Below are positions 27,454 to 45,466 of a DNA stretch of 64,000 nt, piece by piece. The position numbers and the translations under genes were made by a program. Source of the DNA: a virus; IMG/VR virus record IMGVR_UViG_3300045988_161192, positions 1 to 64,000 of that record, one strand, 5' to 3'. How positions within the stretch are numbered: position 1 is the stretch's first letter; the number at the start of each line of letters is the position of its first letter. The notes under the pieces were generated by a model that made no database searches, had not been told where the DNA came from, and saw nothing but the letters and a program-made list of their open reading frames with translations.

Positions 27454-28034
27454 TGAGTAAAATCTATATACATTATGGTTCTAACGAATTCAAACCGGAA
27501 CTCTTCAAACCAGTTAAGAACGAAATGATGTTCACAAAACCTAAAGGTGGTCTTTGGGCATCTCCAATTAACGCTAAAGAGAGTTGGAAAGAATGGTGTG
27601 AAAGAAATGACTTCCACTTAGAACTTTTAGAAAAATCATTTGTCTTTGTTCTAAAACCAGATACCAAAGTATTATTTATTGACGATGTCAAACAATTGGA
27701 GAATTTACCAAAAGTCCAAAACCCAGCGATTTTCGATAATTTCAAGTTATGGACTTGCTTAGATTTTGAAAAGCTATCCCAAGAATACGACGCTGTTGAA
27801 ATCACATTGTCTGAGGAAAAATCACACCGAGGTGAATTCTGGGGCGGTCTATATGACAAACTATATGGATGGGATTGTGATAGTATTTGTATAATGAACC
27901 CAGAATGCATTAACACAAATCCAGAAATTACTATTACTCCTATTATAGAACAAAAACCAGAGGAACCTGGTGATACATATAAGCAATATGTTGTCAAAGG
28001 TTATAAAATCAGCCAAAATGGAGAAGCTCTGTAA
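27453..28034 (+). CDS. hypothetical protein translationally coupled to the MazF-like gene
   Basis: TAATG overlap with the upstream gene; 193 aa. Confidence 0.4.
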   Translation: MSKIYIHYGSNEFKPELFKPVKNEMMFTKPKGGLWASPINAKESWKEWCERNDFHLELLEKSFVFVLKPDTKVLFIDDVKQLENLPKVQNPAIFDNFKLWTCLDFEKLSQEYDAVEITLSEEKSHRGEFWGGLYDKLYGWDCDSICIMNPECINTNPEITITPIIEQKPEEPGDTYKQYVVKGYKISQNGEAL

Positions 28035-28062
28035 AAACCGGAGCTTCAAAATCAATTTTAAG
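28023..28062 (+). terminator. hairpin GAAGCTC/GAGCTTC followed by the conserved AAAATCAATTTTAAG motif
   Basis: 7-bp inverted repeat straddling the stop codon, then the family motif at 28048-28062 and a T-run. Confidence 0.35.
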
Positions 28063-28113
28063 ACAGTTTTAAATATCAAGCCATATAATTACCTTAGCTA
28101 AAATGGAGGTGAA

Positions 28114-28443
28114 ATGATGAACTATTACGAATGCAGGAACTTTGGAATAAAGTATAAAGTTTTTCTTTATATCGATACAAAAGAATATCTGGCAGACAGA
28201 ATATTTTTGGACCATAAGGTCCGTGTGAAATGGACCAGACAATTTTCTCACAAAAACTCACCTTATTTGGTCATATTTTGTAAAGTTCCAAAGAAAGAGG
28301 TCGCAAGATTTAAAATGGCAATGAGTGATTTGGAAAAGAAAATGCTAATCTATGGTTACACAGACTACATGGACCTTAGTAAAAGCATTATAGATGAAAT
28401 TACAGAGGAGGTAGAATTCAGTGGAAGAAAGAAGAGAAATTGA
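28114..28443 (+). CDS. hypothetical protein
   Basis: 109 aa; RBS GGAGGTG. Confidence 0.35.
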   Translation: MMNYYECRNFGIKYKVFLYIDTKEYLADRIFLDHKVRVKWTRQFSHKNSPYLVIFCKVPKKEVARFKMAMSDLEKKMLIYGYTDYMDLSKSIIDEITEEVEFSGRKKRN

Positions 28444-28882
28444 CAAAATTCTGGAAAAGGAATATAATGTACCTGAAGAAATCGAAGAACTCGCTAATGA
28501 TTTAGGTGGAGGTTGGTGGAATTACCGACTAATCGAAAAGGAAAGTCATTGGACCAATAAAGCTGGCAAAGAATATTTCGAAAAATATTTTGAGATACAC
28601 GAAGTTTATTATAAAGGCGATGGAGAAATTTGGGGTTGGTCTGAAAACCCGATGAGTATTTACTTCGAAAACTTCAAAGAAGTAGGTTATCTTGTAAAAC
28701 AAATTAGAGCTGCTACTCGAAAACCTGTTCTGAAACTTGTGGAAGGTGAAGACGGAGAGGAAGAGTTGGTTCCAACGATGAAAACTCTAAAGGAATATAA
28801 AAAAGTTGACCTTTCAAACTGGTGCTCAGAAGATTTTTGGAAAGAAATTGAGGAGACAGAAAATGAAACAAGACGAAAATAA
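28421..28882 (+). CDS. hypothetical protein
   Basis: 153 aa acidic. Confidence 0.35.
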   Translation: MEERREIDKILEKEYNVPEEIEELANDLGGGWWNYRLIEKESHWTNKAGKEYFEKYFEIHEVYYKGDGEIWGWSENPMSIYFENFKEVGYLVKQIRAATRKPVLKLVEGEDGEEELVPTMKTLKEYKKVDLSNWCSEDFWKEIEETENETRRK

Positions 28883-29156
28883 AGTCAAAAAGTCAGTTCA
28901 AGAATATCTCGACTCCTTAGGTGCTTACCATTTTAAAGTACACGGGTCAATTTATATGAGGGCTGGAATTCCAGACATTGTTTGTTGTTACAAAGGAAAA
29001 TTCATTGGAATAGAAACTAAAGATGGAAATAATAAAGCCAGTGAATTGCAATTAGCTCACGGTCGAAAAATAGAACGAAATGATGGCATCTTTATCATAG
29101 CGTACTCTGTCGATGACGTGAAGGAGGTATTTGTAAAATGTGGGTTAGTAGAATGA
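28863..29156 (+). CDS. VRR-NUC domain nuclease
   Basis: GIPDIVCCYKGKFIGIETKDG matches the VRR-NUC (PD-(D/E)XK) core G-x-PD...IE-x-K; ATG at 28863 after AGGAGACAG. Confidence 0.5.
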   Translation: MKQDENKVKKSVQEYLDSLGAYHFKVHGSIYMRAGIPDIVCCYKGKFIGIETKDGNNKASELQLAHGRKIERNDGIFIIAYSVDDVKEVFVKCGLVE

Positions 29157-29347
29157 AAGACAAACACTGCACAGGATGCAAATGGCACATGCAATTTGGA
29201 GGACTAGACTGTTGTGATAGACCAGAAAATAATATTAGAGTAATAAAACCAAAACAACTTATTTGTTTTCATAAAAAAGAAGGCAAATGGTATAAACCTG
29301 GAGAAGAACCAATAGAAAAGGAGGAAAAGTATGGATGGTATGATTAA
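29138..29347 (+). CDS. Cys-rich zinc-binding small protein
   Basis: CTGCKWH...CCDR; 69 aa. Confidence 0.3.
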   Translation: MWVSRMKDKHCTGCKWHMQFGGLDCCDRPENNIRVIKPKQLICFHKKEGKWYKPGEEPIEKEEKYGWYD

Positions 29348-29690
29348 AGGTGGGGCTCAACACTTTTTAGATTATAAGGAAGTCGTTGAAATCAAAAATC
29401 CCCAATCAGAATTAGCTCAGACTTTGGTTGACAACATCAAGCAAACTTTACTTGAGCAAATTCGAGTTGAAACACCTAACACGATAAATTATGACAAAGC
29501 TTTCAGAATTCAAGTCAGACTTCTAGACGATATGAATTTAGTCGGAAAACTAGAAGAAATTCCAATTTTGGAAATTCCTCTTCGAATTCCTGGAATGGAT
29601 TTAGAAAGAGAAAGTCGAATATACCTTGACGAAAAACCTCTAAAGTTTAGAGACAGATTAAAAATATTATTGAAAGGAAGATTAGATTAG
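29331..29690 (+). CDS. hypothetical protein
   Basis: 119 aa; RBS AAGGAGGAAAAG. Confidence 0.35.
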   Translation: MDGMIKGGAQHFLDYKEVVEIKNPQSELAQTLVDNIKQTLLEQIRVETPNTINYDKAFRIQVRLLDDMNLVGKLEEIPILEIPLRIPGMDLERESRIYLDEKPLKFRDRLKILLKGRLD

Positions 29691-29691
29691 C

Positions 29692-30411
29692 ATGTTACCA
29701 ACAATTAAAATTTACAAAATGGATTGGAATTTTCTAATCCAAAACTATTTGGACAAAAGATTATGGAGTAAAGATTGGACCTTGTTTGAGTATAAAGGAT
29801 TTAAGGTTAGTATTAGTTTGTATAACATTTATACGAAGAACGAGAAAATCTATTTTGAAATTTCTCTATCACACAAAGAACCAGAAGAAAATTATATTGT
29901 AACCAAGACAAAACAAATCGACTATTCACTAAAGATTGACGATGTGAAATTTTTAAAGAAGAAAATCAATTCTGCAATCTGGGAGTTATTTGTTTCTGGA
30001 GAATGTGACTGGTACATTCGATATGAGGACCATTACTCTGAACTCGTTGAACTCAGAGAAGAAGAAAAGGAAAGACTGGAGAAAATTGCTGAAGAATTCT
30101 TAGATGAGCATGACATCGACAATGAACACATCAGAGAAGCTTATGTTGAAGCTTATGTCGATGAGTATGAAAAGACTTGGGACATGATGAGAGACTATGA
30201 GGCTCACAGAATGTACAATGCTTTGCCAGATTTGTTTTTGGTTTGGTTAGACTCTTTGGAAGAAGATGACCCAATCAAACGTGAAACTTTAAAAGAAAGA
30301 GTTGGTTCAGACACAATCAATAAAATTATGAAAGAAATTGAGGAATACCAAAGATACATCGAAACTGAAGAATGGGAAGAAGAAATGAAATCAAACCTAG
30401 AGGAGGTATAG
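29692..30411 (+). CDS. hypothetical acidic protein
   Basis: 239 aa, Glu-rich C-terminus. Confidence 0.4.
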   Translation: MLPTIKIYKMDWNFLIQNYLDKRLWSKDWTLFEYKGFKVSISLYNIYTKNEKIYFEISLSHKEPEENYIVTKTKQIDYSLKIDDVKFLKKKINSAIWELFVSGECDWYIRYEDHYSELVELREEEKERLEKIAEEFLDEHDIDNEHIREAYVEAYVDEYEKTWDMMRDYEAHRMYNALPDLFLVWLDSLEEDDPIKRETLKERVGSDTINKIMKEIEEYQRYIETEEWEEEMKSNLEEV

Positions 30412-30413
30412 TT

Positions 30414-30647
30414 ATGAGCTCAATAAATGAGAGATGCAGTTTATGCTTCAGAAAAGAAAAACCAGAAGATTTAGTTAGCAAAGATTCTTTACAACTTTGT
30501 CCAAAATGTTACAAGAAGTATGAAGAATCTCCATACAATCAAAGAGTAATGCTTTTGAATTCTGTAAAATGCTATAGAAAACTCATAGCTCGTTATGAAG
30601 ATACATCTGGAATTAAGATAGACACCGATTTTGGAGGAATTTCATAG
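30414..30647 (+). CDS. zinc-ribbon protein
   Basis: CSLC ... CPKC; ATG at 30414 after GGAGGTATAG. Confidence 0.35.
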   Translation: MSSINERCSLCFRKEKPEDLVSKDSLQLCPKCYKKYEESPYNQRVMLLNSVKCYRKLIARYEDTSGIKIDTDFGGIS

Positions 30648-30673
30648 CCAATTATGGAAAGTTGAAGAAAAAC

Positions 30674-30705
30674 GAGGTCCTAAAATCAATTTTAAGGGCC
30701 TTTTT
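30674..30705 (+). terminator. conserved-loop terminator GAGGTCC-taAAATCAATTTTAA-GGGCCT-TTTTT
   Basis: stem with a G-U wobble, family loop motif, and T-run. Confidence 0.45.
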
Positions 30706-30860
30706 ATTTGTCCGATGATAAATTACCTTAGTAACCTAGGGTCAGTCAATCTAGGGCTAACCTGAGGTCACTCACTGCCTTTTGATGATTTTACCTCATT
30801 TATAAAACCACTATTTTGAAAGAAAAAACCTAAAAACCTTAACAAATTTCAAGAAAACTG

Positions 30861-30889
30861 TTTACTTTTCTCGAAAAGTATGGTATAAT
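30861..30889 (+). promoter_or_regulatory. promoter aaaCTGTTTACT-17-TGgTATAAT (family copy)
   Basis: TTTACT 30861-30866, 17-nt spacer, TATAAT 30884-30889. Confidence 0.5.
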
Positions 30890-30923
30890 GATAATGAGAA
30901 CTATGGGGAAAGGAGAAACCAAT

Positions 30924-31358
30924 ATGGATTTTGTAAAATCACTAGGAGGCAGAGAAAAATATTATCAGAGAACAAACGTCAAGGATTGTGTGATTAGAGC
31001 CATCTGTAATGCCACAGGAAATGATTATAAGAAAACGTATGACGAAGTAAAAACAGAACTCATCATATATAATAGGAAACTTTACAGAAGTTCGACGAAA
31101 CATAATTCACCTCGAAACGGAGTTCCTCACAATGTCACCAAAAAATACATTGAAAAAGTTTTAGGATGGACTTATCATAAAATAGAACCGGGCTCAATTC
31201 TTGGAGAATACGAATTTGGAAAAGGAATCTTTCTTGTGAACTTGAACAGACATGTTACATGCATTAAAGACGATGTACTATATGACAGTTGGGATTGTTC
31301 ACAAGGAAAAGGTCGAAAAAGAAACCCAATGATATTAGGGTATTGGTCAAAAGAATAA
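30924..31358 (+). CDS. hypothetical protein (conserved Cys...His...Asp arrangement, possible papain-like fold)
   Basis: ATG at 30924 after GGGGAAAGGAGAAACC; DCVIRAICN ... NRHVTCIKDD pattern. Confidence 0.35.
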   Translation: MDFVKSLGGREKYYQRTNVKDCVIRAICNATGNDYKKTYDEVKTELIIYNRKLYRSSTKHNSPRNGVPHNVTKKYIEKVLGWTYHKIEPGSILGEYEFGKGIFLVNLNRHVTCIKDDVLYDSWDCSQGKGRKRNPMILGYWSKE

Positions 31359-31603: not shown

Positions 31604-31611
31604 GAAACAAT

Positions 31612-31914: not shown

Positions 31915-31950
31915 TATGAAGAGAAATCTCGACAACTTTTCTAAAACCTG

Positions 31951-31979
31951 TTTACTTTTTTCGCAAAATGTGGTATAAT
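31951..31979 (+). promoter_or_regulatory. promoter aaCCTGTTTACT-17-TGgTATAAT (family copy)
   Basis: TTTACT 31951-31956, 17-nt spacer, TATAAT 31974-31979. Confidence 0.5.
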
Positions 31980-33982: not shown

Positions 33983-34113
33983 TTGGAATCGGATGGAAAA
34001 AGTAGTAAAACATTGAGATTATGCTCTGGATGTGGTATAATAATACTATAAACATCTCGAGAAAACTGACATAATCGAATGTAAAAATCCATATAGTAAA
34101 GGAGGAGAAAGAT

Positions 34114-34347
34114 ATGGAAGAAATAAAATTCAAAGTTCCAAAATCTCAACTAAGAAAGGTAGCAAAAGCTGAAAGCAAAGAGGGAGAAGCAAAAATCACT
34201 CTTAAAGCTGGTTATTTTACACCAGACAACAAATCAGAAATAGTTGCTAAAACAGAAAAAGAAGCAATCAGAACTTTAAGACTTTCAAGAAAAGAAAAAG
34301 TTGAGAAAGCTGCTAAAGCTGAGAAAAAAGAAACAGCAAAAAAATAA
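34114..34347 (+). CDS. lysine-rich small basic protein (possible DNA-binding)
   Basis: 77 aa; KAEKKETAKK-type tail; RBS AAAGGAGGAG. Confidence 0.35.
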   Translation: MEEIKFKVPKSQLRKVAKAESKEGEAKITLKAGYFTPDNKSEIVAKTEKEAIRTLRLSRKEKVEKAAKAEKKETAKK

Positions 34348-34370
34348 TTTAAAAAGTTACTAATAAACTG

Positions 34371-34399
34371 TTTACATTTTAATGGGAGTGTGATATTAT
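34371..34399 (+). promoter_or_regulatory. promoter aaaCTGTTTACA-17-TGtgaTATTAT (family copy)
   Basis: TTTACA 34371-34376, 17-nt spacer, TATTAT 34394-34399. Confidence 0.45.
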
Positions 34400-34508
34400 A
34401 ATAAGGTCATACTCCTATTATTTTTGTCTAAAGTGATAGAGTAATGATGGACCAACTATTTAAGTCCTAAAACTGAATAAGACTCTAAAAGGAAAGGAGG
34501 ACTAAAGG

Positions 34509-35147
34509 ATGCGTATCTGGTTATATGGAGCACCGTTTAGTGGAAAAACAACATTTGCTAGCCAATTTCCTGGAGCAAAAATAATTTCAACAGATGGAAA
34601 TGCAGAAGGTTTATTCAAGAAAGAAGACATCATTAGAGTTAGAAATTATAAAGACCTTGAAAATGCAATTTCTGAGTTGAAAAAGAATTCTCCAGAGTGG
34701 TTAGTCATTGATGTTATTGACTACCTTTATGACATTTGTAGAACTTACGTCCTTGACAAAAACAATGTTGAAGACGAAGGAGATATTCCATACAGAGGTT
34801 ATAAGATGGTACGTCAATTTTTCTGGGGTGTAATCACAAAAATCTCTAACTTATGTGACAACATCATATTTATTAGCCACGAAGATGTTACAACTGAGAA
34901 AAATAAATTTGGTAGAGAAATCACAAATTATGTACCAAAATTTGAAAGCAAAATGCTAACACAAATGACTGGTATTATGACAGTAGTTGGAAGATGTTTG
35001 AAAGAAACCTCTGAAAAGAACGACTCAGCTTATGTTCTAAGAATAGGACATAATGATAATGAGGTGGGTGGAACACGTTTCAAACTAAAAGAAACACAAA
35101 TTCCACAAGGGTATGACAATTTTATGAACAATATTGTCAAAGAATAA
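34509..35147 (+). CDS. AAA_24-type P-loop ATPase (Sak4-like single-strand annealing/recombination protein)
   Basis: MRIWLYGAPFSGKTTFASQF Walker A at the extreme N-terminus followed by ISTDGNAEG, as in Sak4/AAA_24. Confidence 0.55.
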   Translation: MRIWLYGAPFSGKTTFASQFPGAKIISTDGNAEGLFKKEDIIRVRNYKDLENAISELKKNSPEWLVIDVIDYLYDICRTYVLDKNNVEDEGDIPYRGYKMVRQFFWGVITKISNLCDNIIFISHEDVTTEKNKFGREITNYVPKFESKMLTQMTGIMTVVGRCLKETSEKNDSAYVLRIGHNDNEVGGTRFKLKETQIPQGYDNFMNNIVKE

Positions 35148-35201
35148 TCACGTGAGACTTGACCGCAGGAAGGCAAGCAGTGAATAGAAAGGAAATTCAA
35201 A

Positions 35202-35615
35202 ATGGACGAATTGAACGATTTAGATGAAATCTTTAACGACATTGAGAAAAATGAAGGAGTAGAAGAAGCAGCTGGTGGCTTCAAAGAAATCGAAGATGGA
35301 GAATATGAAGCAGAAGTAATTGGAGCTGAATTCGGAAACTCTAAAAAGACAAACGCTAGAATGGTTACAATAGAATATGGTCTAGAAGACAGTAGACACA
35401 AATGGCAATATCTAATGCTAGATGGAAAAGATGATGAACAAACAAGAAGAAACATTGCAACATTTGTTACAACTATGAAGAAATTTGGATTAGAAGCTAA
35501 GGATGTTAAAGGTTATGTTAGTCAATTAGAAAAACTTGAAGGAAGAGGATGTACTCTAGTTTTGACAACTGGAAAAACAGGCTTCCAAAGAGTTAGTGTA
35601 ACACCACATGACTAA
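35202..35615 (+). CDS. hypothetical acidic protein (DUF669-like partner of Sak4, possible SSB-like)
   Basis: position directly after the AAA_24 gene; 137 aa. Confidence 0.35.
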   Translation: MDELNDLDEIFNDIEKNEGVEEAAGGFKEIEDGEYEAEVIGAEFGNSKKTNARMVTIEYGLEDSRHKWQYLMLDGKDDEQTRRNIATFVTTMKKFGLEAKDVKGYVSQLEKLEGRGCTLVLTTGKTGFQRVSVTPHD

Positions 35616-35679
35616 GACTCCTTGAGGGGCTAGTGAAAACTGGCTCCTTATTTATTATAAATAGGAAGGAGAAATCAGA

Positions 35680-37578
35680 ATGGCAACATTAGTATATGAC
35701 TTCGAAGTATTTAAGTTTGATTGGACTGTTACTTTCAGGGAAGGAGATAAATATTACCAATTCCATAACGATGTTCCAGGATTTCAGAAATTCTATGAAC
35801 AACACAAAGACGATTTATGGGTGGGACATAACAACACTCACTATGACACTGTTATCGCTAGACTATTAGTTCGTGGAATAGATGGTCTCGAACTAAAACT
35901 TGCTTCAGATGATTTAGTTAACGATAAAAAGAACATTGTGATGAGAAAATACAATTTGTACAAAGTTCCAATAAATGACTTGGACCTTATGCAAGACCAG
36001 ATGTTCGTCTCATTGAAAGAAGTAGAAGGATTTTTAGGACTTGAAATTCACGAGTCTGAGATTGACTTCACTTTAGATAGACCATTGACCAAAGAAGAAG
36101 TAGAATTGGTTTTGAAATATAACAAAGACGATGTCGATGCAACCTATGAAGAACTAAAAATCAAGTACGACCAAGTTCTTTCAAAAGTCAACTTAGTCAA
36201 GATGTACAATTTACCAAAGACATATATAGCCAAAACCAATGGACAACTTTCAGGAGAAATTTTGGAAGCAGAGTTCAGAGACTTCAAAGATGGAAAAACA
36301 CCTTTTGACCCAAAAATCATTCCTTTGACTATTGAAAAATACACAGAGGCTATTGATTATTACAGCAAATGTGATGTTATTCCAGACACCGGTTCAAAAC
36401 CAATTATGGTGGCAGGAGTTGAACACAATTTGGGTATTGGAGGACTACACGGTGCTATACCAAACTTTATGTATGAAGGAGAATTATGGTTAGTCGATGT
36501 AGCTTCATACTATCCAAACCTAATGCTAAAGATGGGATTTGTTTCAAGAGGAATTACTCATCCAGAAAAATTCGAACAACTAGTTACTAGAAGATTGACC
36601 AATAAAGCAAGAACCGGTGAACTTAAGAAGTTATTGGAAAAAGACCCAGACAATGCCGAATATAAAGCAGAATTGAAAAGATGTAAAGGTGAAACTGGTT
36701 CTCTAAAATTAACTATCAATTCTATTTCTGGATGTATGAAGTCAAGATTTAGCAAATTATTTGATGAGAAAAACAACAACAATATGTGTATTTCTGGTCA
36801 ATTATTACTAATCAATCTCATTGAAAAATTGGAACCATACTGCAGATTAGTACAATCTAACACAGATGGTATTATCATAATTCCTGACGACAAAGAAAAA
36901 TGTGATGAGGTAATACAAGAATGGATGGACAGAACTCACTTAGTTCTTGAAAAAGACACAGCCCATGCTATCTTCCAAAAAGATGTTAACAACTACATTT
37001 TGGTTGAAGACTCTGGGTCTATTCATACTAAGGGAAGAGACGTTGCTCAATATTCATCGAGAAAGGTTCAACACTTAATTCGAAATCACTTAAAAATCTT
37101 AGACAAAATGATAGTAGAATTTTTAGTTTATAACAAACCACTTGAAATTGCTTTAGACACACCCCTTTCTGATTTACAAAACATCAAGAAAGTTGGTTCA
37201 ACCTATGAAGCTGTCTATTGGGAAAAACCAGAAGGACTAGTCAAATGTGCTAATACAGTCAATCGAATTTACCCAACCAAAGACACAAGTTATGGAAAGC
37301 TAAAGAAGAAACACAGAGCCAAAGAAAATTTGGACAACCTACCAGACATACCGGAACACTGCATGGTTATCAATGAAAACATTAGAGGTAAAACTTTAGC
37401 AGATGTAATAGAATGGATAGATTTAGACTGGTATACAATAGCTGCTAAAAATGCTATTATCAATTATGTTCTAGAGCCATCAGAAAAAACCAAAGGTAAA
37501 AAGAAAGACATGAATGTTGACTGGGAGAATGTCCTAAGAAAACTTGGAAGGTTAGAAGGAGGTACACAAAATGTCTAG
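35680..37578 (+). CDS. family-B DNA polymerase with N-terminal 3'-5' exonuclease
   Basis: Exo I YDFEVF, Exo II GHNNTHYDTVI, Pol motif A DVASYYPNLM, motif B KLTINSISG, motif C-like NTDGIIII. Confidence 0.6.
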   Translation: MATLVYDFEVFKFDWTVTFREGDKYYQFHNDVPGFQKFYEQHKDDLWVGHNNTHYDTVIARLLVRGIDGLELKLASDDLVNDKKNIVMRKYNLYKVPINDLDLMQDQMFVSLKEVEGFLGLEIHESEIDFTLDRPLTKEEVELVLKYNKDDVDATYEELKIKYDQVLSKVNLVKMYNLPKTYIAKTNGQLSGEILEAEFRDFKDGKTPFDPKIIPLTIEKYTEAIDYYSKCDVIPDTGSKPIMVAGVEHNLGIGGLHGAIPNFMYEGELWLVDVASYYPNLMLKMGFVSRGITHPEKFEQLVTRRLTNKARTGELKKLLEKDPDNAEYKAELKRCKGETGSLKLTINSISGCMKSRFSKLFDEKNNNNMCISGQLLLINLIEKLEPYCRLVQSNTDGIIIIPDDKEKCDEVIQEWMDRTHLVLEKDTAHAIFQKDVNNYILVEDSGSIHTKGRDVAQYSSRKVQHLIRNHLKILDKMIVEFLVYNKPLEIALDTPLSDLQNIKKVGSTYEAVYWEKPEGLVKCANTVNRIYPTKDTSYGKLKKKHRAKENLDNLPDIPEHCMVINENIRGKTLADVIEWIDLDWYTIAAKNAIINYVLEPSEKTKGKKKDMNVDWENVLRKLGRLEGGTQNV

Positions 37579-38137
37579 AATTATCATCGAAGGAGTAGAC
37601 AAATCTGGAAAGTCTACAATCATTGAGAAAATGAAAAATCAGTTTGAATACGGACTAGCAATTAAAAATATGATAAAACCTAAAGATGCTTCAGAAGAAG
37701 AGACTGGAAGAATTATTGATATGTACGACCAGATTCTCAGAATTTCAAGTCAAAGTGATTTGAAAAACCCAAGCAATCGCAACTTCACGTATATCTTAGA
37801 CCGTTTCTACCAAAGTGAAATAGTATACTCTATACTCAGAGGTAATGACAGGTTTGAGGAAGAAGGGTTTATGGCAGTAGTTGATTTATGGGAAAATAAA
37901 ATAGCTAAAGACACATTGTTGGTATTGCTTGAAACTGACCCAGCAATAGTAGCTGAAAGATTTAAGACTTGTGGAGAAGATTATGTTAAAGAAGAACAAA
38001 TCAAAATGTTACAAGAAAGATACAACAGGTGTTTTGAAATGAGCAAACTACCAAAAATCAAACTTGACACCACTCAGCTTGGAATAGAAAAATCATTGGA
38101 ATTGATTAAGCAAGAAATTGCAAAACTAAATGTTTAG
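37571..38137 (+). CDS. dNMP / thymidylate-kinase-like P-loop kinase
   Basis: EGVDKSGKST Walker A in the thymidylate-kinase arrangement. Confidence 0.5.
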   Translation: MSRIIIEGVDKSGKSTIIEKMKNQFEYGLAIKNMIKPKDASEEETGRIIDMYDQILRISSQSDLKNPSNRNFTYILDRFYQSEIVYSILRGNDRFEEEGFMAVVDLWENKIAKDTLLVLLETDPAIVAERFKTCGEDYVKEEQIKMLQERYNRCFEMSKLPKIKLDTTQLGIEKSLELIKQEIAKLNV

Positions 38138-38150
38138 AAAGGAGAAAGAT

Positions 38151-38822
38151 ATGAACATTTTAGATTACAAAGGTGACGAATTCCATTATGACACATGGCT
38201 TAGAGACATGTATGATAGACAACACAATGTTTATTTAAAATACAAAGAAATTGAAAAGATGCCAGAAAATTTTGGAAGCATTCAAACCAGAGAAACTCAA
38301 AAATGGGTTAAGGATTTCATAAACAGAGTTAACGAAGAAGTAGCAGAAAGTTATGAAAGCATCAGAGACCCAAACATGCAAGTATTAGTTGAAAAAGAAG
38401 TAAAGAAAGAGAATGGAAGTACTGAAGTTATTAAGTATGACATACATCGTTCTGAGGAATTAGCAGATGCTTTACACTTCTATTTGGAAATGCTAATCAT
38501 AATTGGAAAAACTCCAGAGTGGTTGATTAGAGCATTCGAAGAATATACTCAAAGAGGAAGAAAAGTTTATGTTGACGACATCATCCTAAACTATTGGGAA
38601 GTTAGTTATCAACTTGGTATGCTTGGAAATTGTTTGAAATTAAAACCTTGGAAACAAGATGAGGTTCTAACTGATTTAGATAAAGTAGACCATCAACTTA
38701 AAGAAGTATTTTTTGCTTTACTTGATGTCTTTGCTGCCAATGGAAATGACTACAACGACATTTATGATTTATACACTAGAAAAAATCAAGTAAACCAATT
38801 TAGACAAAAGTCAGGTTATTAG
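38151..38822 (+). CDS. MazG-like all-alpha nucleoside triphosphate pyrophosphohydrolase
   Basis: EEVAESYE and EELADALHFYLEML match the MazG EExxE...ExxDxLxYxL signature; ATG at 38151 after GAAAGGAGAAAG. Confidence 0.45.
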   Translation: MNILDYKGDEFHYDTWLRDMYDRQHNVYLKYKEIEKMPENFGSIQTRETQKWVKDFINRVNEEVAESYESIRDPNMQVLVEKEVKKENGSTEVIKYDIHRSEELADALHFYLEMLIIIGKTPEWLIRAFEEYTQRGRKVYVDDIILNYWEVSYQLGMLGNCLKLKPWKQDEVLTDLDKVDHQLKEVFFALLDVFAANGNDYNDIYDLYTRKNQVNQFRQKSGY

Positions 38823-38836
38823 AAAGGAGCAAAGTT

Positions 38837-39121
38837 ATGGATGAGGAAGTAAAATTCAAAAGAACAATTTTTGAAAAATGTCCTTGGCTTAATTTAGTAA
38901 TGACCATTATGGTTATGCTATTACAGGTTGTAGTAGCTATCGTTGATGCCATAAGGGGAAGATATCTCTGGACAGTATTCTTTATTCTATTGGCTCTAAC
39001 TTATCTTTTCTTAATGATACCGATGTCTTATAAACTGATGAAACGTACAATGCAAAATAATAAAGAAATGAGAGACTTAGAAAAACGAATAAATGAAGCA
39101 AGAAAGGGATGGAAGCTATGA
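38837..39121 (+). CDS. small membrane protein (two TM helices)
   Basis: hydrophobic stretches LNLVMTIMVMLLQVVVAIV and VFFILLALTYLFLMI. Confidence 0.35.
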   Translation: MDEEVKFKRTIFEKCPWLNLVMTIMVMLLQVVVAIVDAIRGRYLWTVFFILLALTYLFLMIPMSYKLMKRTMQNNKEMRDLEKRINEARKGWKL

Positions 39122-39807
39122 GAATTTACCAAAATTGTAGAGAAATGATGTCTGAGGTTCATCGTGATTTGCAAGAGATGGGAGTAATCAAACACAACAA
39201 GACAGTCCAAGACAAAAACATCGAAGGATTAGACGAATATACAATGAAAGAATTAGTTGGTTATTCATACGCAATCTTAGATTTTAGTGACATGGACCAG
39301 ATGATAACTGAAAACGGCTTAAGCCTTGAATGGTGTAAAGCTGACTTTGCTGAGAGAATAAGCCCAGAATATATCAACCCAGGAGAGGCTTATAAATTAA
39401 GACCAGTTTGGGATGAGTTCTTACATGATGGAACTTTCAGCTATACTTATAATGAAAGAATTAGAACACAATTAGCAAAAACTATAGATGTAATTAAAAA
39501 CGATGTAAACACAAGACAAGGAATTATTGAAATCTACAACTCAGACAAAGATAGTGAAAACAGAGGTGGAGCAAAAAGAATTCCATGCTCAATGTACTAT
39601 CAATTTATAACAGACCAAAATGGAAAGTTGGACATAATCTATAACATCAGAAGTAATGACTTTGGTGAGCATTATCCTTACGATATTTGGATGGCTATCT
39701 CATTACTAAAATATGTAGCCAATCAATGTGGTCTTGAAGTTGGAAAGCTAATTTATTTTGCTGGTTCGCTTCATGCATTCAAAAAGGATTTGCCTACTAC
39801 TTTTTAG
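39109..39807 (+). CDS. thymidylate synthase / dNMP hydroxymethylase family enzyme
   Basis: RIPCSMYYQF (active-site Pro-Cys), RSNDFGEHYPYDIW, GSLHAF align to ThyA motifs PCH..FQFY, RS.D..G.P.N, GD.H.Y; short at 232 aa. Confidence 0.5.
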   Translation: MEAMRIYQNCREMMSEVHRDLQEMGVIKHNKTVQDKNIEGLDEYTMKELVGYSYAILDFSDMDQMITENGLSLEWCKADFAERISPEYINPGEAYKLRPVWDEFLHDGTFSYTYNERIRTQLAKTIDVIKNDVNTRQGIIEIYNSDKDSENRGGAKRIPCSMYYQFITDQNGKLDIIYNIRSNDFGEHYPYDIWMAISLLKYVANQCGLEVGKLIYFAGSLHAFKKDLPTTF

Positions 39808-39851
39808 TTGGTCATTATTCTATTAGCTCAGGGCTCATTGATTGGTGATTT

Positions 39852-39874
39852 TAGCTAAGGTAATTATATGGGTC
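39852..39874 (+). repeat. TAGCTAAGGTAATTATATGGGTC intergenic motif, + orientation
   Basis: near-identical copy at 45368-45384 (+); reverse-complement copies at 28080-28100 and 30718-30736. Confidence 0.5.
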
Positions 39875-40126
39875 AAAATATAAAAGGACCTTAAAATCAA
39901 TTCTGAGCCCTCGCTTTTTATAAAATATCAATGAAAATTAACAAAATAAAGGGATTGGAGGTATTTTATGAAAGAAATGTATTTGCATTGTTTGAAATAT
40001 AACAAGTGGAAAAAGAAAGAAGAATTTGCTAAAACTACAACCATAACTGAAAAGTGTGAAGAGCCAAAGAAAGTCAACTGTGGTCTATGCGAATTCAATA
40101 AAATTGAATGGGTGGAGGCTGATTAG

Positions 40127-40447
40127 ATGACAGTTAAAGATTTGAAAAATCAACTTGACAAAATGGAAGATGACCAAGAAGTCATCATAAAATTTGCAGT
40201 TAGTCCAACAGATTTGACAGGTTACTATTTAGATATTATGAGAGTAGAAAAAGAATGGGGTGAAAACCCAAGAGCTTTTATTTATGCTAGTTTTGATACT
40301 GATAAAGAAACTCTGTCAATGTTTGGACAACCAGATTTAAAAGAATTATACGAAAGAGATGTGATGGGTCTATGGTCGAAAGACACTATCATAGATGAAA
40401 CTTGGAAAGATGTTCTGGGAATTAGCACTGATGGCCACAGACGATAA
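40127..40447 (+). CDS. hypothetical protein
   Basis: 106 aa; RBS GGAGG. Confidence 0.35.
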   Translation: MTVKDLKNQLDKMEDDQEVIIKFAVSPTDLTGYYLDIMRVEKEWGENPRAFIYASFDTDKETLSMFGQPDLKELYERDVMGLWSKDTIIDETWKDVLGISTDGHRR

Positions 40448-41003
40448 AGAATTACCAAAAGAACATCGAATAGGAGAAGTACTTTGCTCGGCCTGTAAAT
40501 GGTACGAAGGACCTAACTGGAAACCCAACTGGGGTGAAAGATATTGTCACCATCCCAAAATCTTTAGAACAGGATTAGTCAATACGACTTGGGGATGTGA
40601 AAGATGGGAGGCAAACATGAAAGATGAGGAAAGACCAAAATGTCTCAAAGCTTTGGAAAATGTAGTTGAAAATGGAAAAGCTATAAGTAATGACTGGTTG
40701 GTGGCTAACATCAAAGAGACTTTGGTTTATATTCAAAAGTTACAATCTGATTTGTATGCTGCTAATAACATCGTGAGTGATTATGTGGACACAAGTTCAA
40801 CAGATAAAGCCAAAATAGCTGAACAAAAGAAGAGGATTAGAAATTTACTAGAGAATGCCAACATTATGATAGAAGAATACGATGAACTTGAAAAGGAAAG
40901 AGATTACTGGAAGGAACAATTGGTTCTATTTGGACATCATAATTTGGAAGAATTAGAAAAACAGTGGGAAGAAAGGAGTCAAGTCAATGGGTCCAAAGTA
41001 TGA
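40434..41003 (+). CDS. hypothetical Cys/Trp-rich protein with C-terminal coiled coil
   Basis: ATG at 40434; CSACKWYEG...CHHPK...WGCERW. Confidence 0.3.
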   Translation, partial: ATDDKELPKEHRIGEVLCSACKWYEGPNWKPNWGERYCHHPKIFRTGLVNTTWGCERWEANMKDEERPKCLKALENVVENGKAISNDWLVANIKETLVYIQKLQSDLYAANNIVSDYVDTSSTDKAKIAEQKKRIRNLLENANIMIEEYDELEKERDYWKEQLVLFGHHNLEELEKQWEERSQVNGSKV

Positions 41004-41904
41004 TAATATTTACACATTGAACGATATGGACAAAATTCCCAACGTGTTTCATTTTAGAAATTACAGGGATTGTCTATATGGACTAAGTGACGTGGTTATA
41101 TCACTTAGAAAAGGAATGTTTGCCAAGGAAAATATTTCACTTTATATTCAGTTCGACGATTTGGATGGATTGGACAAACTAAATTTTCGAAGACCTAGAA
41201 AGCATGAGTTATTACGTAAAAGATATGTCAATGAAGACAATTGGAATTTAGCTTTATTGCAATTCAATGAAGAAGACAGAGTTTATTATGAATTCGAAGA
41301 ACAAACCAAGTCGAGAGGAAATCACTCAGCTGGCAAATGTTTGATAGATTTTGAAATCTCCAGCACCAATGAGATGGGAGCTAGAATTTGCACTGTCAAT
41401 ATGAGAGCATCTATCGTTCCTTATAACCTATACTATGACTTAATACTCATACACAATCTAATTACTGAGGCAAAGCAAAAATGTGGCTTTATGGGTGTTA
41501 GTCTTATAATAATTAACATTGGGCTGCTTACTATAAAGAAGGGAGTTAGTTTTGGAGGTTTAGTTTGTATGGGCTATCACTGGAAAGACTTTGAATTAAG
41601 CAAGTTTTTTACCTCCGACATTGATTATATGTTCGACAATATCGAGCATCCTTCAACATTTAAAGGAGCCAGAACAGCATGGGACAATGCTTACTACGAG
41701 ATGGTTGATAGAATTAACGCTGGTGAGTCCAAAGAGATTTGGCGTTGGAAACCATCAAAGAAAATCATACATCGAAAGAAAGAAGTTATAGAAGGAACAA
41801 AAGACAAATGGGGTAATGGAGGAATAAACGAAGACCTCGTAAAATTAGCAAAAGAGCTCACTGACTGGAATTTATACAATGACCAGGAAAGCGAAAATAA
41901 TTAG
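40987..41904 (+). CDS. hypothetical protein
   Basis: 305 aa ORF in the array. Confidence 0.35.
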   Translation: MGPKYDNIYTLNDMDKIPNVFHFRNYRDCLYGLSDVVISLRKGMFAKENISLYIQFDDLDGLDKLNFRRPRKHELLRKRYVNEDNWNLALLQFNEEDRVYYEFEEQTKSRGNHSAGKCLIDFEISSTNEMGARICTVNMRASIVPYNLYYDLILIHNLITEAKQKCGFMGVSLIIINIGLLTIKKGVSFGGLVCMGYHWKDFELSKFFTSDIDYMFDNIEHPSTFKGARTAWDNAYYEMVDRINAGESKEIWRWKPSKKIIHRKKEVIEGTKDKWGNGGINEDLVKLAKELTDWNLYNDQESENN

Positions 41905-41915
41905 AAAGGAAGGAA

Positions 41916-42311
41916 TTGATTATGGAAAACAAATTCTTAGAATGTGATTTGATTTGGTTCGATGTTTTAGCATTAGATAAAAGGTTAAAAGACAGACTAC
42001 ACTTAAATACTGAGGAAATAGAACTAACTCAGGAAGACATTGAACTAATCAACACAGGAGTGAAAGTAGACTTAGAAAAACTAAAAGAGATGGTTGACAA
42101 ATGTGGGTTCAACACAAACTCTATTGAAAATGAAATTGGAATAAGTAGAGCACACTGGTCAATGGTATTTGGAAGCAGTGAAAGAAAGAACAAACGTGGA
42201 ATTCGTATGAGAATGGTAGTAGCAATTATGAATGCTATTAGAAGGAGGAAAGTAACGGACAGCTTTAGACCAATATTCATCACGAAGGAAGACGCAAAAA
42301 GTAATAACTAG
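41916..42311 (+). CDS. hypothetical protein with possible HTH
   Basis: 131 aa; IGISRAHWSMVF segment; basic C-terminus. Confidence 0.3.
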   Translation: MIMENKFLECDLIWFDVLALDKRLKDRLHLNTEEIELTQEDIELINTGVKVDLEKLKEMVDKCGFNTNSIENEIGISRAHWSMVFGSSERKNKRGIRMRMVVAIMNAIRRRKVTDSFRPIFITKEDAKSNN

Positions 42312-42334
42312 GAAAGGGCGGTGTATTTTAGATT

Positions 42335-44605
42335 ATGTCAGAAAAGGAGAAAGAAACAAACCAATACTGGTATTCACCGCTTCCTGCAACAGGGTCAGTT
42401 GATAAGGATGGCAAGTCAATAGAAAAGCAACCTAACCTTAGCAAGAAGTTTACTTTAGAAGAAATCAAAGAATTGGGATGTAATTATGTTAGAAGAGTAA
42501 ACCCAGGATTTGTCTTTTTCGATTTTGATAGTGAAGAGTTAGCCTCTAAAGCTGAAGAAATCATTAGGGCATTGGGTTATAAATGCAAAAAACTAAAGAC
42601 AACACGTGGAGCACATTTTATGTTTAAAACTTCACTAGAAAAAATTTCGGATGGCTCAGGTCCTAACTGGCTGGGGTTAGATTGTGATTTGAAGGGATGT
42701 GGAATATCACAAACCAGAAAAATTAACTGCCAGATAATGAGACTACACGATGAGGATAGACCCGAGACTTACATTGGTTTTGATAAGTCGTTAGGAATGG
42801 GTCTTAAAATCACTGATGAGGACTTAGACGAAGCTCCCTACTTTTTATATCATGCACCTAAAGCAGCAAGGGAGACTTTAGAGCAAGCATTCGGAATGTC
42901 GTCAGGGGATGGTGGTGGCAGAAATAACTGGATGCACCACGAGTATGCAAAATTTTGTAAAAAGGCCAGATGGACTTGGGAGCAATACCACGAAGCTGCT
43001 AGCATTATCAACACTTATGTTTTTGGTGAAAGCTTAGGAGACACTGAGTTCACCACAGCAACAAGACAGGAGGAATATGAAAACTTACAGGTAGGCTCTT
43101 CAGATGAAAAGACTTTGCTATCAACTCAAGCACAAGATGTTATTGATACTTGGTCTTGCAAATCTTATAATGGTGAAATACTTTTCTTCGATGAACAAAA
43201 AGGGCACTATGATAACTATATCGAGACCATCAAGAACTATTTGATACAAAAATATAAGGACTTAAATATCACAACACAAAAAATAGAAGAAATTTTAAGG
43301 CAGGTGACAATTATGATTTTAACGAACTCAGAATATAAAGCAACCAGGAATGAAAATTATGTAGTATGTAACAATAAACTTATCAATGTAGTAGCTAACG
43401 AGCCACCGAGAGAAATGACCAGAACTATTGTTACAGATATAGTTTATCCCTACGAAATTATGAGTGAGTCGGAGCTAAAAGCTTATGAAACCAAAGGAGA
43501 AGAGCTCATCAAAAGATATGAGAAGTCAAAAGCTGATGGAACCTTGAATGTTGACAAAGCTCCAAAAATTGGTGAGAATGGCAAAATACTGGGTGAAGAA
43601 GGTATGGCTTATAAGTTTATGAGAGACATTAGTTGTAAAGATGAAATGGTAGAAAAAGTCATCTGGGAAATGGTTGGATGTATGCTTGCACCAGTCAAAA
43701 AAATCAATAAAATCTTTATACTTTATGGCTCTGGAGCTAATGGAAAATCAGTATTACTAAAGTTAGTCAAAGAAATTATGGGAAGACTAATGACATCAGC
43801 AAACATTCTTAATATCAACGATAGCTTTGCTCTCCAAAATGTTTATAAGGGTATATGTAATGTCACTGACGATGTTGGAATTACCACTTTAAGAGAAACT
43901 GGTTTACTAAAATCTTTGATAGATGGCTCAGATATTGAAGTAAACATCAAACACAAAGACCCAATCCAATGGAAACCCAATAGCCAATTTATAATGTGCT
44001 GCAATGAAATTCCTCGAATAGCTGATAGCACAAAGGGTATGATTAGAAGACTTTCATTTATTCCTTTTGAATTGGAACTAGAGCCAGGAGAGATGGACAT
44101 ATTTTTGAAAGACAAAATACTTGGGGAGCCAGGAAATAATGGTCTACGCTATATTATGACTAAGGCAATATTAGCACACAGGGAAGCAGTCATCAGAGGT
44201 GATTTGACAATTCTACCAAAACAAAAAGAATTAGAGGAAGACTTCATCGATGAGAATAAAGATAGAATATCACAGTTCTTGGAATATATGATAGAAGAAC
44301 ATTCAGCTGAAGGATTTTGGAATTGGTTGGATGGCCAATTTAGTGAACAAGTCTACCACGATTACTATGAATGGTGTGTAGGCCAATATTACAACAACAT
44401 TGAAAATCAAAAAACTTTCAACACAAGGTTTAAAAAGAAACTGCCTCAAAATTGGATGCTAGGACAACAAAGATTTGAAGGAAAGAACTACAGAATTTAT
44501 CAACGTGGAACTGTTGGTCAGGCAGAAAAAGAAAGAAGACTAAAAAAAGAAAGAGCTGAAGCAAGAAAAGCTAAGGCAGAAAATGAAGAAAATATAGAGA
44601 ATTAG
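42335..44605 (+). CDS. primase-helicase (PrimPol domain + D5/SF3 helicase)
   Basis: N-terminal DxD (VFFDFDSEE) and RGxHxxF (TRGAHFMF) PrimPol motifs; C-terminal Walker A ILYGSGANGKSVLLK typical of P4/D5 SF3 helicases. Confidence 0.65.
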   Translation: MSEKEKETNQYWYSPLPATGSVDKDGKSIEKQPNLSKKFTLEEIKELGCNYVRRVNPGFVFFDFDSEELASKAEEIIRALGYKCKKLKTTRGAHFMFKTSLEKISDGSGPNWLGLDCDLKGCGISQTRKINCQIMRLHDEDRPETYIGFDKSLGMGLKITDEDLDEAPYFLYHAPKAARETLEQAFGMSSGDGGGRNNWMHHEYAKFCKKARWTWEQYHEAASIINTYVFGESLGDTEFTTATRQEEYENLQVGSSDEKTLLSTQAQDVIDTWSCKSYNGEILFFDEQKGHYDNYIETIKNYLIQKYKDLNITTQKIEEILRQVTIMILTNSEYKATRNENYVVCNNKLINVVANEPPREMTRTIVTDIVYPYEIMSESELKAYETKGEELIKRYEKSKADGTLNVDKAPKIGENGKILGEEGMAYKFMRDISCKDEMVEKVIWEMVGCMLAPVKKINKIFILYGSGANGKSVLLKLVKEIMGRLMTSANILNINDSFALQNVYKGICNVTDDVGITTLRETGLLKSLIDGSDIEVNIKHKDPIQWKPNSQFIMCCNEIPRIADSTKGMIRRLSFIPFELELEPGEMDIFLKDKILGEPGNNGLRYIMTKAILAHREAVIRGDLTILPKQKELEEDFIDENKDRISQFLEYMIEEHSAEGFWNWLDGQFSEQVYHDYYEWCVGQYYNNIENQKTFNTRFKKKLPQNWMLGQQRFEGKNYRIYQRGTVGQAEKERRLKKERAEARKAKAENEENIEN

Positions 44606-44987
44606 GGGAAAATTTTGGGTTTGTAACTATGTTTGATTTCTGGTTACAAGGGGCCAAACCCTATTGGTTGACACATTCGGACTAGTAATCATGTAACCAA
44701 AACAGGGCGCCCCCTATTTCATATATTTTTCATTTTCACTACGACATTGTTATTGTCTTATATAAAATATACCATAAGTTATAAAAATTTGGTTACATAA
44801 TTACAAATAAAATAAAATATGATAAAATCAAGGGGTACAGAGAAAACCAAAACCATAACCAGAGCGAAACCATAAATGAAATCAAAATTTGGTTATGGTT
44901 ATCTGATGAAATCAAAGAGAAAGCTATTTAGATTTTGGAGAGAATGTGATAAAATAAAATTGAATAAAAGCTAAGGAGGTAAAGCTG
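44606..44987. repeat. 382-bp AT-rich non-coding region with multiple inverted/direct repeats (candidate cos/pac or origin)
   Basis: GTTACAA/TTGTAAC at 44621, 44644, 44693; perfect IR ACCATAACC (44851-59) / GGTTATGGT (44890-98); lies between primase-helicase and packaging genes. Confidence 0.4.
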
Positions 44988-45311
44988 ATGGCAAAAGTAA
45001 CATTTGAATTCGACGAAAACGAAGACAGAAGTGATATTAACGAAATCGTGAACAGACATAAGCTTCTTACAGCTTTATACGAAATACAAAACTTGAGACG
45101 TAATCTTTACAAAGGTTATTATAACGAGAACGACTACGTTTCAATATTGACTGAAAAGTATAAGCCAGTTCGTATGATAACTCAAGAAGAACTTAAAGAA
45201 GCCAGCATGACAGGTAAAAGTATTGAAAACACCGTTGGCTACGTCAGAGAAGAATATGTCATCGACGAAATCGATAGAGCTTTGTCAGATGTTTATGATT
45301 TATTGGGCTAA
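44988..45311 (+). CDS. hypothetical protein (first gene of the packaging block)
   Basis: 107 aa; strong RBS AAGGAGGTAAAG. Confidence 0.4.
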   Translation: MAKVTFEFDENEDRSDINEIVNRHKLLTALYEIQNLRRNLYKGYYNENDYVSILTEKYKPVRMITQEELKEASMTGKSIENTVGYVREEYVIDEIDRALSDVYDLLG

Positions 45312-45367
45312 TTATTTAGTCCTTGTTTTTTATTCTCCTAAGCAAGTTATTTTAAAAACAGAGTATA

Positions 45368-45384
45368 TAGCTAAGGTAATTTAT
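45368..45384 (+). repeat. TAGCTAAGGTAATTTAT intergenic motif copy
   Basis: see 39852; followed by the hairpin GGGGC-ttaaaattgaaatatg-GCCC. Confidence 0.45.
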
Positions 45385-45466
45385 CATTGGGCTATATAAA
45401 AGGGGCTTAAAATTGAAATATGGCCCTCGTCTTAATGCTAAAACCTAAAGAAAGGAGGCAAAATTC

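Follow-up and report, generated by a model that had tools for sequence, protein, structure and literature searches.

A hairpin-and-box module recurs in both orientations at gene-block boundaries of an uncultured phage and may act as a transcription cassette

Why should a genome that is read almost entirely from one strand carry the same intergenic element in two orientations? The question is raised by a 64,000-nucleotide stretch of viral DNA (IMG/VR record IMGVR_UViG_3300045988_161192, positions 1 to 64,000; hereafter the window), which has a G+C content of 35%, carries nearly every credible gene on the + strand and looks like most of a tailed-phage genome of ~66 kb. The element is a hairpin joined to a short asymmetric box, and a preliminary description had taken it for a protein-binding or RNA-processing module repeated at gene-block boundaries. 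The module is real, conserved and of a broadly known kind; what is unusual is the box and the use in two orientations. We see about an even chance that it is a composite transcription cassette of the PeSL type known from T4-type phages, used in both orientations, which would combine a bidirectional terminator, a box for a putative regulator and outward-facing -10-like elements. The mechanistic details of such a cassette we hold with less confidence than the idea as a whole.

A profile hidden Markov model (HMM) of the module finds exactly six copies in the window, A to F, all of them intergenic (Table 1), as expected of a regulatory module reiterated at gene-block boundaries. Hairpin and box form a single unit of ~70 nt that runs from an A-run through the hairpin, a T-run and a spacer of variable sequence and constant length to the box, (A/T)ATAATTACCTTAGC; aligned, the unit reads AAAAA-CGAGGnCC-(T)AAAAT-CAA-ATTTTAAGGnCC-TTTT(T)AT-spacer-(C)ATATAATTACCTTAGC(T/C)AAAA. 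Modules A, B, E and F lie forward, and C and D are inversions of the whole module. The two longest inverted repeats of the window are A with C (73 nt, 77% complementary) and B with D (63 nt, 78%), pairs that represent two subfamilies cutting across position.

The hairpin and motif coordinates listed in the preliminary description all proved correct, and the genome-wide motif search that it had proposed returned an excess of near-exact copies. The 12-mer AATTACCTTAGC occurs four times with at most one mismatch against 0.29 expected, a count reached by none of 100 shuffled sequences, and AATCAATTTTAAG three times against 0.66 expected (2 of 100 shuffles). At up to three mismatches neither motif is enriched, and the signal is confined to near-exact copies. 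The exact 14-mer TAGCTAAGGTAATT stands at 39852-39865 and 45368-45381 on the + strand and at 28087-28100 on the - strand, with a two-mismatch copy at 30721-30734 (-). Other parts of that description need revision. It treated the box as an independent partner that accompanies the hairpin in either orientation; in the window it is the entire module that is inverted, and ATTTTAAG and AATTACCTTAG stand 24 nt apart in each of the four full copies (A-D). The hairpin at 45399, listed as a looser relative, is a full family member (module D, E 4e-19). Those at 3145 and 16064 keep the hairpin and T-run as modules F and E, with boxes that have become degenerate (TATAAAATCATTATTGTAA and TATAATTTATCATTTGTAA). 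The variant noted at 16025 resembles the 3' half of the hairpin only and is HMM-negative; the stretch 16019-16060 upstream of E is a partial tandem echo of that half (TCATTTTTAAGGAAATTTTGAAG).

The hairpin itself is built of a GC-rich lower stem, an A/T upper stem (AAAA/TTTT) and a loop of 4-5 nt. The loop was said to be conserved, and the conservation stands, but it belongs mostly to the A/T upper stem around the loop and not to the loop proper. Information per column, taken over 19 copies from the window and eight related loci, is concentrated in two blocks, the upper stem with its loop (1.5 bits per column) and the box core (1.6 bits), against 0.33 bits for the spacer; the blocks correspond to the 3' half of the upper stem (ATTTTAAGG) and to the box (TAATTACCTTAGC). 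Because the 5' arm is far more variable (in D, for example, CCATATTT stands opposite ATTTTAAG), the 3' arm is conserved beyond the needs of pairing. The earlier argument that a plain terminator would not need such a conserved loop is therefore upheld for this arm, but much of the loop conservation is explained by paralogy among the copies.

Standard pairs fill 80% of the stem cells across the 19 copies, with free energies down to -15 kcal/mol, and three pairs show double compensatory changes, a covariation score that 4 of 500 shuffles reached. The module-forward strand has frequent G.U pairs and is 3-6 kcal/mol the more stable for B-type hairpins and, in two of three genomes, for C-type hairpins; D-type hairpins are about equal on both strands. 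The values for the window are -11.6 kcal/mol forward and -5.2 reverse for B, -8.2 on the module-forward (genome -) strand against -2.8 for C, and -1.5 forward and -4.5 reverse for A. The stable GC-rich stem and U-tract of an intrinsic terminator are found in B, in E and in most forward copies of the relatives; A reaches only -1.5 kcal/mol, and C would make the better terminator on the strand that is not transcribed. The T-run that most hairpins were said to end in is present on the + strand at A, B, E, F and C, and is missing at D (CGTCTTAAT). A consensus terminator scan does not list the modules, because of loops longer than 8 nt.

Pattern scans and protein-anchored look-ups recovered a graded series of relatives. 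Close relatives share 77-92% nucleotide identity with the window (loci L005/L049, L008, L011, L029, L037, L041, L060, L073 and L179); an intermediate group shares about 65-79% (L072; SRR7457739_2379, with L064 and L070; and IMG/VR 3300010163_000020, with L003 and L178); and in distant phages (L065-L069 and L071) TerL is 59-75% identical. Wherever close or intermediate relatives cover junctions A, B, C and E, the module is present in the same orientation, the exception being L070, in which the stretch covered has no E-like copy. The expected conservation in related phages is thus found, at the same junctions and in the same orientation, at 65-92% nucleotide identity. Orthologues include those of A in L073 (13291) and L029 (176), of E in L073 (646), of C in L060, L008, L064 and L003, all inverted, and of D in L008, L011, L037 and L005/L049. 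Site F is more changeable: the module is missing in the close relative L179, and L178 has it with a box that is flipped and palindromic, AGGTAAT-TAT-ATTACCT. The distant relatives lack the module. So do the genomes that represent 185,579 bacterial and archaeal species in GTDB (one genome each), in which 104 pattern matches were all rejected by the HMM as chance.

Conservation is uneven within the module. In eight orthologous pairs the box is identical at 128 of 136 positions (94%), the hairpin at 208 of 232 (90%) and the spacer at 74 of 112 (66%), in flanking genome that is 83-92% identical. The copies are under purifying selection and so are not dead remnants. One scenario had been named as fatal to a functional module, namely that its copies descend from a single duplicated terminator-promoter cassette and are inactive remnants. 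Duplication of such a cassette comes close to our best explanation; the inactivity does not fit the conservation.

Placement separates the two orientations. Forward copies that follow an unambiguous stop codon (A, B and F) start 9-26 nt past it, B being placed 26 nt past the stop of gene 30372-30647, and a ribosome-binding site and start codon follow within about 10 nt of A-type copies and about 20 nt of F. Modules B and E and the extra forward copies of L070 and L072 lie 25-135 nt upstream of promoters of the form TGTTTAC...TGnTATAAT, which are outside the module; from B to the promoter at 30859-30889 the distance is ~125 nt. This family, TGTTTAC(A/T)TT-N-TGnTATAAT, has seven copies in the window, all on the + strand and none expected by chance, and probably represents the early promoters. 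The ~115 nt between the module B box and its early promoter (30735-30850, CCTAGGGTCAGTCAATCTAGGGCTAACCTGAGGTCACTCAC...) are non-coding, and are conserved in L041 and L073 and replaced in L070 and L072.

The inverted copies head long gene blocks. Module C follows the thymidylate-synthase-like gene, 45 nt past its stop codon, and precedes the primase block (39968-44605), with 48 nt between the module and the start of the primase operon at 39968. Module D lies between a separate + strand terminator at 45305-45333 and the start, at 45467, of a 185-aa gene that by its position would encode the small terminase subunit (terS), and precedes the terminase/portal/head block (45467-52464). No extended -10 element (TGnTATAAT) occurs in 34041-52490, and so none in either block, and in the gaps before them the consensus scan gives no promoter-like site on the + strand. 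The terminator upstream of D is good and unrelated to the module, so some promoter is needed within 45334-45466; distant relatives without the module have an ordinary GTTTAC...TATAAT promoter at the position upstream of terS. The 107-aa gene directly upstream of D (44988-45311) has its own promoter and terminator. It is present in L003 and L064, and the deletion of 45019-45263 in L008 and L011 implies that it is dispensable.

Could the module supply the promoters that these blocks seem to want? On the module-reverse strand every full copy reads box-N26-TAAAAT, the invariant TAAAAT lying within the hairpin 3' arm; the box would then fall at about -39 to -55. A -10-like TATAAT or TAAATT precedes the box on the forward strand; TATAAT is perfect in A, C and most of the relatives' copies, and AATT is invariant in all 19 copies, E and F included. 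Within the module neither a -35 element nor a TGn is conserved alongside these hexamers.

Copy number, anatomy, placement, conservation and the association with insertions and deletions are matters of observation; the working of the cassette is proposed on their basis. The hairpin, set between an A-run and a T-run, would be an intrinsic and largely bidirectional terminator, the G.U pairs favouring the module-forward strand. The asymmetric box AATTACCTTAGC would be the binding site of a putative phage-encoded regulator, and TATAAT in the box (forward strand) and TAAAAT in the hairpin 3' arm (reverse strand) would form an outward-facing pair of -10-like elements. The forward copies A, B, E and F may then close early units, with the next gene or a strong early promoter taking over. 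In the inverted copies C and D, box-N26-TAAAAT points rightwards and may provide regulator-dependent promoters for the primase operon and for the terminase and head operons.

The copies decay differently in the two orientations. Box and TAAAAT are kept in every readable inverted copy, that is, in the C and D types of the window, in L008, L060, L037 and L005, and in the D-like elements of L064 and L003. In those last elements the hairpin arm that would pair with the retained one is gone and folding is no better than that of shuffled sequence; their box and CCTTAAAAT persist. A T-run is no longer present in the D orthologues. Some forward copies depart from TAAAAT, with TAAAAG in two of the three copies of L070 and CAAAAT in L073 B, and E and F lack the box core. 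One would expect such a pattern if forward copies depended on the hairpin and T-run, and inverted ones on the box and TAAAAT. The box has also been rearranged on its own: it is tandemly duplicated at the C junction of L064 (AAGGTAATTATATGGCTAAGGTAAT) and similarly in L003, forms an inverted repeat at F in L178 and at A in L073 (GGTAAT-ATA-ATTACC), and is flipped relative to the hairpin at L070 13620. Duplicated, inverted or flipped, the box would seem to suit a protein recognition site better than a -10 hexamer, and the arrangements agree with the protein-binding role suggested for it in the preliminary description.

Cassettes of this general kind are known. The PeSL and PmSL elements of T4-type phages are intergenic and join a terminator stem-loop to a promoter, the stem-loop lying upstream of the -10 element or overlapping it (Arbiol et al. 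2010, PMC2839356; Comeau et al. 2014, PMC4122927). Like them, the module is a short composite stem-loop motif, intergenic and beside small genes without known function, with G.T pairs in its stem, -10-like elements that the stem-loop precedes or overlaps and a position at junctions of insertion, deletion or replacement between close relatives. In myoviruses of Gram-negative hosts PeSLs occur about 50 times per genome and include a complete sigma-70-like promoter with -35 and -10 boxes, whereas the module has six copies, no -35, an additional 12-17-nt box at a fixed distance, two inverted copies and a probable Bacilli host. We know of no report of inverted PeSLs. The junctions themselves are unstable. 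Right of A there are three different gene arrangements, one each in L029, L073 and the window, and the breakpoint coincides with the end of the module; a third forward copy stands upstream of an early promoter in L070 and L072 and is absent from the window; and the D-type element, which precedes terS in the window clade, is found between terS and terL in L064 and L003, inverted in both positions. Gene gains and losses among the relatives thus abut modules, as with PeSLs.

Two further comparisons bear on the parts. Phages of Gram-positive bacteria are known to have activator-dependent late promoters immediately before terS (PMC3152322, PMC3753634), and D and its L064/L003 counterparts resemble the RinA/ArpU/Ltr/Alt late promoters in their position at the terminase genes, the absence of a -35 element and a conserved upstream box. 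They differ in that Pfam and PHROGs detect no RinA-, ArpU- or Ltr-like protein among about 30 products, in that the gene just upstream of terS is the dispensable one described above, and in that the box also occurs, in opposite orientation, at early-operon ends. Bidirectional intrinsic terminators have in common with B, E and C a GC-rich lower stem with A-run and T-run flanks directly past stop codons. The module differs from them in its over-conserved 3' arm and in the box linked at fixed spacing, and A, D and F make poor terminators by energy or for want of a T-run.

Several observations weigh against the cassette as we picture it. Hairpins A, F and C (on the + strand) are weak, and only B clearly beats shuffled sequence (-21.5 kcal/mol over an 81-nt stretch, z -2.8), the z-scores of the other copies being near zero; the covariation would lend modest support, the copies being related by descent. 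The candidate promoters have neither a -35 nor a TGn extension, and -10-like hexamers are common in AT-rich sequence. Some intact copies are antisense in a one-strand genome no matter which strand the promoter is on, and the forward copies keep an intact box in all relatives. A single narrow clade carries the module, which limits phylogenetic depth, and recent common descent could account in part for the constant spacing. The scan of about 30 products against Pfam and PHROGs found no regulator, sigma factor, RNA polymerase or known late activator; it matched only a MazF/PemK-like protein (26851-27453), nucleases and the thymidylate-synthase-like protein. Termination, regulator binding and the direction of initiation we infer from anatomy, placement and conservation. 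As to a possible binder, presence/absence profiling works with loci of partial coverage: the 131-aa 41916 product is also found in relatives without the module, and the 77-aa 34114 product is 73-85% identical in two of the module-bearing relatives that cover its region and unseen in module-less relatives, whose loci may not cover it.

The main rival keeps the PeSL comparison and gives up the second orientation: the hairpin would terminate, and TATAAT/TAAATT of the box would re-initiate in the same direction, with TTACCTTAGC as discriminator and start region of a phage-specific promoter class. It accounts well for A and F, where a ribosome-binding site and start codon come ~10-20 nt past the box, and it draws on the perfect TATAAT of A, C and most relatives, the invariant AATT, the extended -10 that B-type copies read (TGaTAAATT) and the PeSL-like order of hairpin, T-run and promoter. 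Modules C and D would then fire leftwards, antisense to the thymidylate-synthase-like gene and to 44988-45311, or towards 44606-44987; that D faces this repeat-rich, origin-like region may be counted in favour. Yet two of the four promoters would have no gene to transcribe, and the primase and terminase operons would be left promoterless. There is no -35 and usually no TGn, TATAAT is missing in L070 13620 with its flipped box, and the box is reversed in L178 F; a -10 element is not expected to duplicate in tandem, and CCTTAAAAT, kept at fixed spacing after the hairpin was lost, goes unexplained. We judge this rival unlikely.

A bolder form of the cassette idea makes it a reversible promoter embedded in its own terminator. 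A protein bound to AATTACCTTAGC would recruit host RNA polymerase to TAAAAT, transcription would start inside the loop so that new transcripts escape the terminator, and orientation alone would drive the switch from early to late genes. The inverted cassette would switch on the primase and packaging operons, and the forward cassette would fire convergent antisense transcripts at early-operon ends, helping to shut them off. We regard this version as doubtful.

Equally doubtful in our estimate is a box without promoter activity, an operator or roadblock whose bound phage protein would halt or modulate RNA polymerase where operons meet, backing up weak terminators or turning off early units. No part of the module is better conserved than the box, which is short, asymmetric and strictly intergenic; it is found with weak hairpins, that of A for example, and its single, tandem, inverted and flipped forms among relatives would suit such a site. 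Stoperators of cluster A mycobacteriophages, 20-30 per genome, are repressor sites of temperate phages and are oriented with transcription. They share with the box the form of short asymmetric motifs found only in intergenic gaps between co-transcribed blocks and presumably bound by a phage protein. The module, with four to six sites in mixed orientation and coupled to a hairpin, departs from them: only four sites per genome are good, the box orientation ignores the single direction of transcription where stoperators are polar (as in mycobacteriophage L5), a roadblock requires neither the fixed distance to ATTTTAAGG nor a kept TAAAAT, and no DNA-binding protein emerged among the products searched.

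The suspicion that the copies are selfish or neutral repeats, terminator remnants or elements of the MITE type (miniature inverted-repeat transposable elements) that spread in either orientation and terminate incidentally, gains from the occurrence of both orientations, from the presence or absence of F and of the third copy among relatives, from the moved D-type element and from subfamilies that ignore position. We consider it highly improbable. By inspection, the module ends show neither the terminal inverted repeats nor the target-site duplications of MITE or REP elements, and the GTDB representatives hold no copies. Position and orientation are kept over genomes 10-35% apart in nucleotide sequence, and box and hairpin are at least as conserved as the coding DNA beside them, with a spacer that varies freely.

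An element acting as RNA has the least to recommend it, and we give it hardly any credence, be it an antitermination site like nut or put, an RNase processing site or a small RNA gene. Hairpin and linear box recall the boxA/boxB layout, and the sense strand at C and D, where long operons start, has the box ahead of the hairpin. Antitermination and RNA processing, both entertained at the outset, nevertheless fit badly with two of four full copies lying antisense: A and B, opposite to C and D though all genes are on the + strand, would transcribe the complementary sequence. There is no boxA consensus, no Rfam family matches the module at the gathering threshold, and folding is like that of shuffled sequence except in B. 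The hairpin is lost in L064 and L003 while the DNA motifs persist, and there is no conserved small open reading frame and no independent promoter/terminator pair for a small RNA.

Other ideas were set aside. Iterons had also been suggested, but each site has one box, and the sites are dispersed 2.6-24.9 kb apart. A separate region is origin-like: the 382-nt non-coding gap between primase and 44988 (44606-44987) is dense in GGTTAC/GTAACC, AACCATAA and GAAATCAAA in direct and inverted repeats and is likely a replication origin, to judge from these repeats. Similar GGTTACAAA repeats follow the primase in L064 (7926-8446). Polarity relative to replication was rejected, since with an origin at ~44.8 kb modules C and A/B/E lie on one replichore yet in opposite orientations; so was inversion by A/C or B/D recombination, the genes between not being inverted in any relative. 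None of the consensus sequences of SigH, SPO1 gp28 and gp33/34, CodY, Fur or IHF fits across the copies, and a literature search for the box sequence met only unrelated pestivirus and primer hits. An ATG in AAGGTAATTATATGG opens frames of 2-8 codons that, by inspection, are not conserved.

Descriptions of repeated terminator/promoter cassettes come mainly from T4-type phages, in which the cassettes organise transcription and drive the shuffling of genes as modules. The module would be a comparable system in an unrelated, uncultured lineage, with the addition of a box and a conserved use of two orientations. If the cassette reading is right, one motif at six sites may offer a handle on the temporal programme of a phage group that has no cultured member and few recognisable regulators. 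The modules also mark recombination-prone junctions, which is useful for annotating related metagenomic contigs. Should the terminator function alone be real, the finding would be an ordinary one.

Table 1. Positions of the module copies, the promoter family and the main gene groups in the window.
Feature	Position	Strand	Details
Module A	28032-28104	+	HMM E 1.2e-16; A-run, weak hairpin 28040-28070, TTTT tail, 21-nt spacer
Module A box	28082-28100		CATATAATTACCTTAGCTA; ribosome-binding site and ATG of gene 28114 10 nt on
Module B	30669-30735	+	HMM E 2e-19; best hairpin 30674-30702 (GAGGTCCT...AGGGCCTT), T-run to 30705
Module B box	30716-30735		TGATAAATTACCTTAGTAAC
Module C	39848-39920	- (whole inversion)	HMM E 3e-19
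Module C, read on + strand			box 39852-39870, spacer, CCTTAAAAT 39889-39897, hairpin to 39913, then CGCTTTTTAT
Module D	45368-45433	- (whole inversion)	HMM E 4e-19
Module D, read on + strand			box 45368-45385, spacer, GCTTAAAAT 45405-45413, hairpin to about 45430; without T-run
Module E	16049-16127	+	HMM 16049-16114, E 2.6e-11; hairpin 16061-16094 with T-run
Module E degenerate box	16104-16126		CCCTTATAATTTATCATTTGTAA; early promoter 16236-16266 downstream
Module F	3132-3200	+	HMM 3124-3175, E 2.5e-4; truncated, 5' arm and loop shortened, hairpin 3143-3165, TTTT tail
Module F degenerate box			TAATATAAAATCATTATTGTAA; then ribosome-binding site and start of tail-tube gene 3212
Promoter family	13677-13707, 16236-16266, 18222-18255, 30859-30889, 31949-31979, 34369-34402, 52468-52498	+	very strong sigma-70-type
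Capsid, tail-tube, tape-measure and fibre genes	0.4-15 kb
Long early/replication region	16-45 kb		SNF2 helicase, ligase, dCMP deaminase, flotillin, DNA polymerase, thymidylate-synthase-like, primase
Terminase and portal genes	45.5-49.6 kb
tRNA-Pro, tRNA-Met	52.6-52.8 kb		ARAGORN and Rfam at gathering threshold
Endolysin gene	55.9 kb

The phage stands apart from those deposited. Among 50,697 deposited phage genomes no close relative of the window was found by megablast of 27-46 kb or by tblastn of the 1249-aa product, and the primase matches there are all below 30% identity; there is accordingly no annotated relative to lean on. A full-length flotillin gene (Band_7 and Flot domains, 24543-25976) encodes a protein 72-80% identical to flotillins of uncultured Bacilli metagenome-assembled genomes. 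It is apparently a recent capture from the host and gives a hint of what that host is. With rumen samples among the sources of related contigs, we infer a low-GC gut or rumen bacterium, probably one of the Bacilli.

Some neighbouring genes deserve mention. The 200-aa protein of 26851-27453 joins an N-terminal PemK/MazF-like endoribonuclease domain (Pfam E 7e-19) to a basic C-terminal extension; no obvious antitoxin adjoins its gene, which is absent from the intermediate relatives L070 and L072. Genes of nucleotide metabolism at 23210-23692 and 37571-39807 encode a dCMP deaminase and dNMP kinase-like, dUTPase_2-like and thymidylate-synthase-like proteins, and distant relatives have TAGT-family genes and ThyX (L067 143-1676, L068 813-1613); together these sets suggest that the DNA of this phage group may contain a modified thymidine. 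In the close relative L073 the SNF2-type helicase (1546-3738) carries an intein with an HNH endonuclease and measures 730 aa, against 462 aa in the window. Free-standing NUMOD4/HNH genes occur in several relatives and none in the window.

Two coding repeats complete the picture of the window. Proteins of 545 and 598 aa have near-identical N-terminal stretches of ~30 residues, E(D/E)EDGVWRTV.GRRIFI.NGE.L (13714-13802 and 50505-50590), which look like a duplicated module and perhaps a signal for head incorporation or targeting. A 54-nt coding repeat, CCAGACACTGGnTATGA...GTTAAC, recurs at 58463-58630, 61672-61725 and 49309-49362 in several tail/fibre-like genes, which suggests a peptide module common to them.

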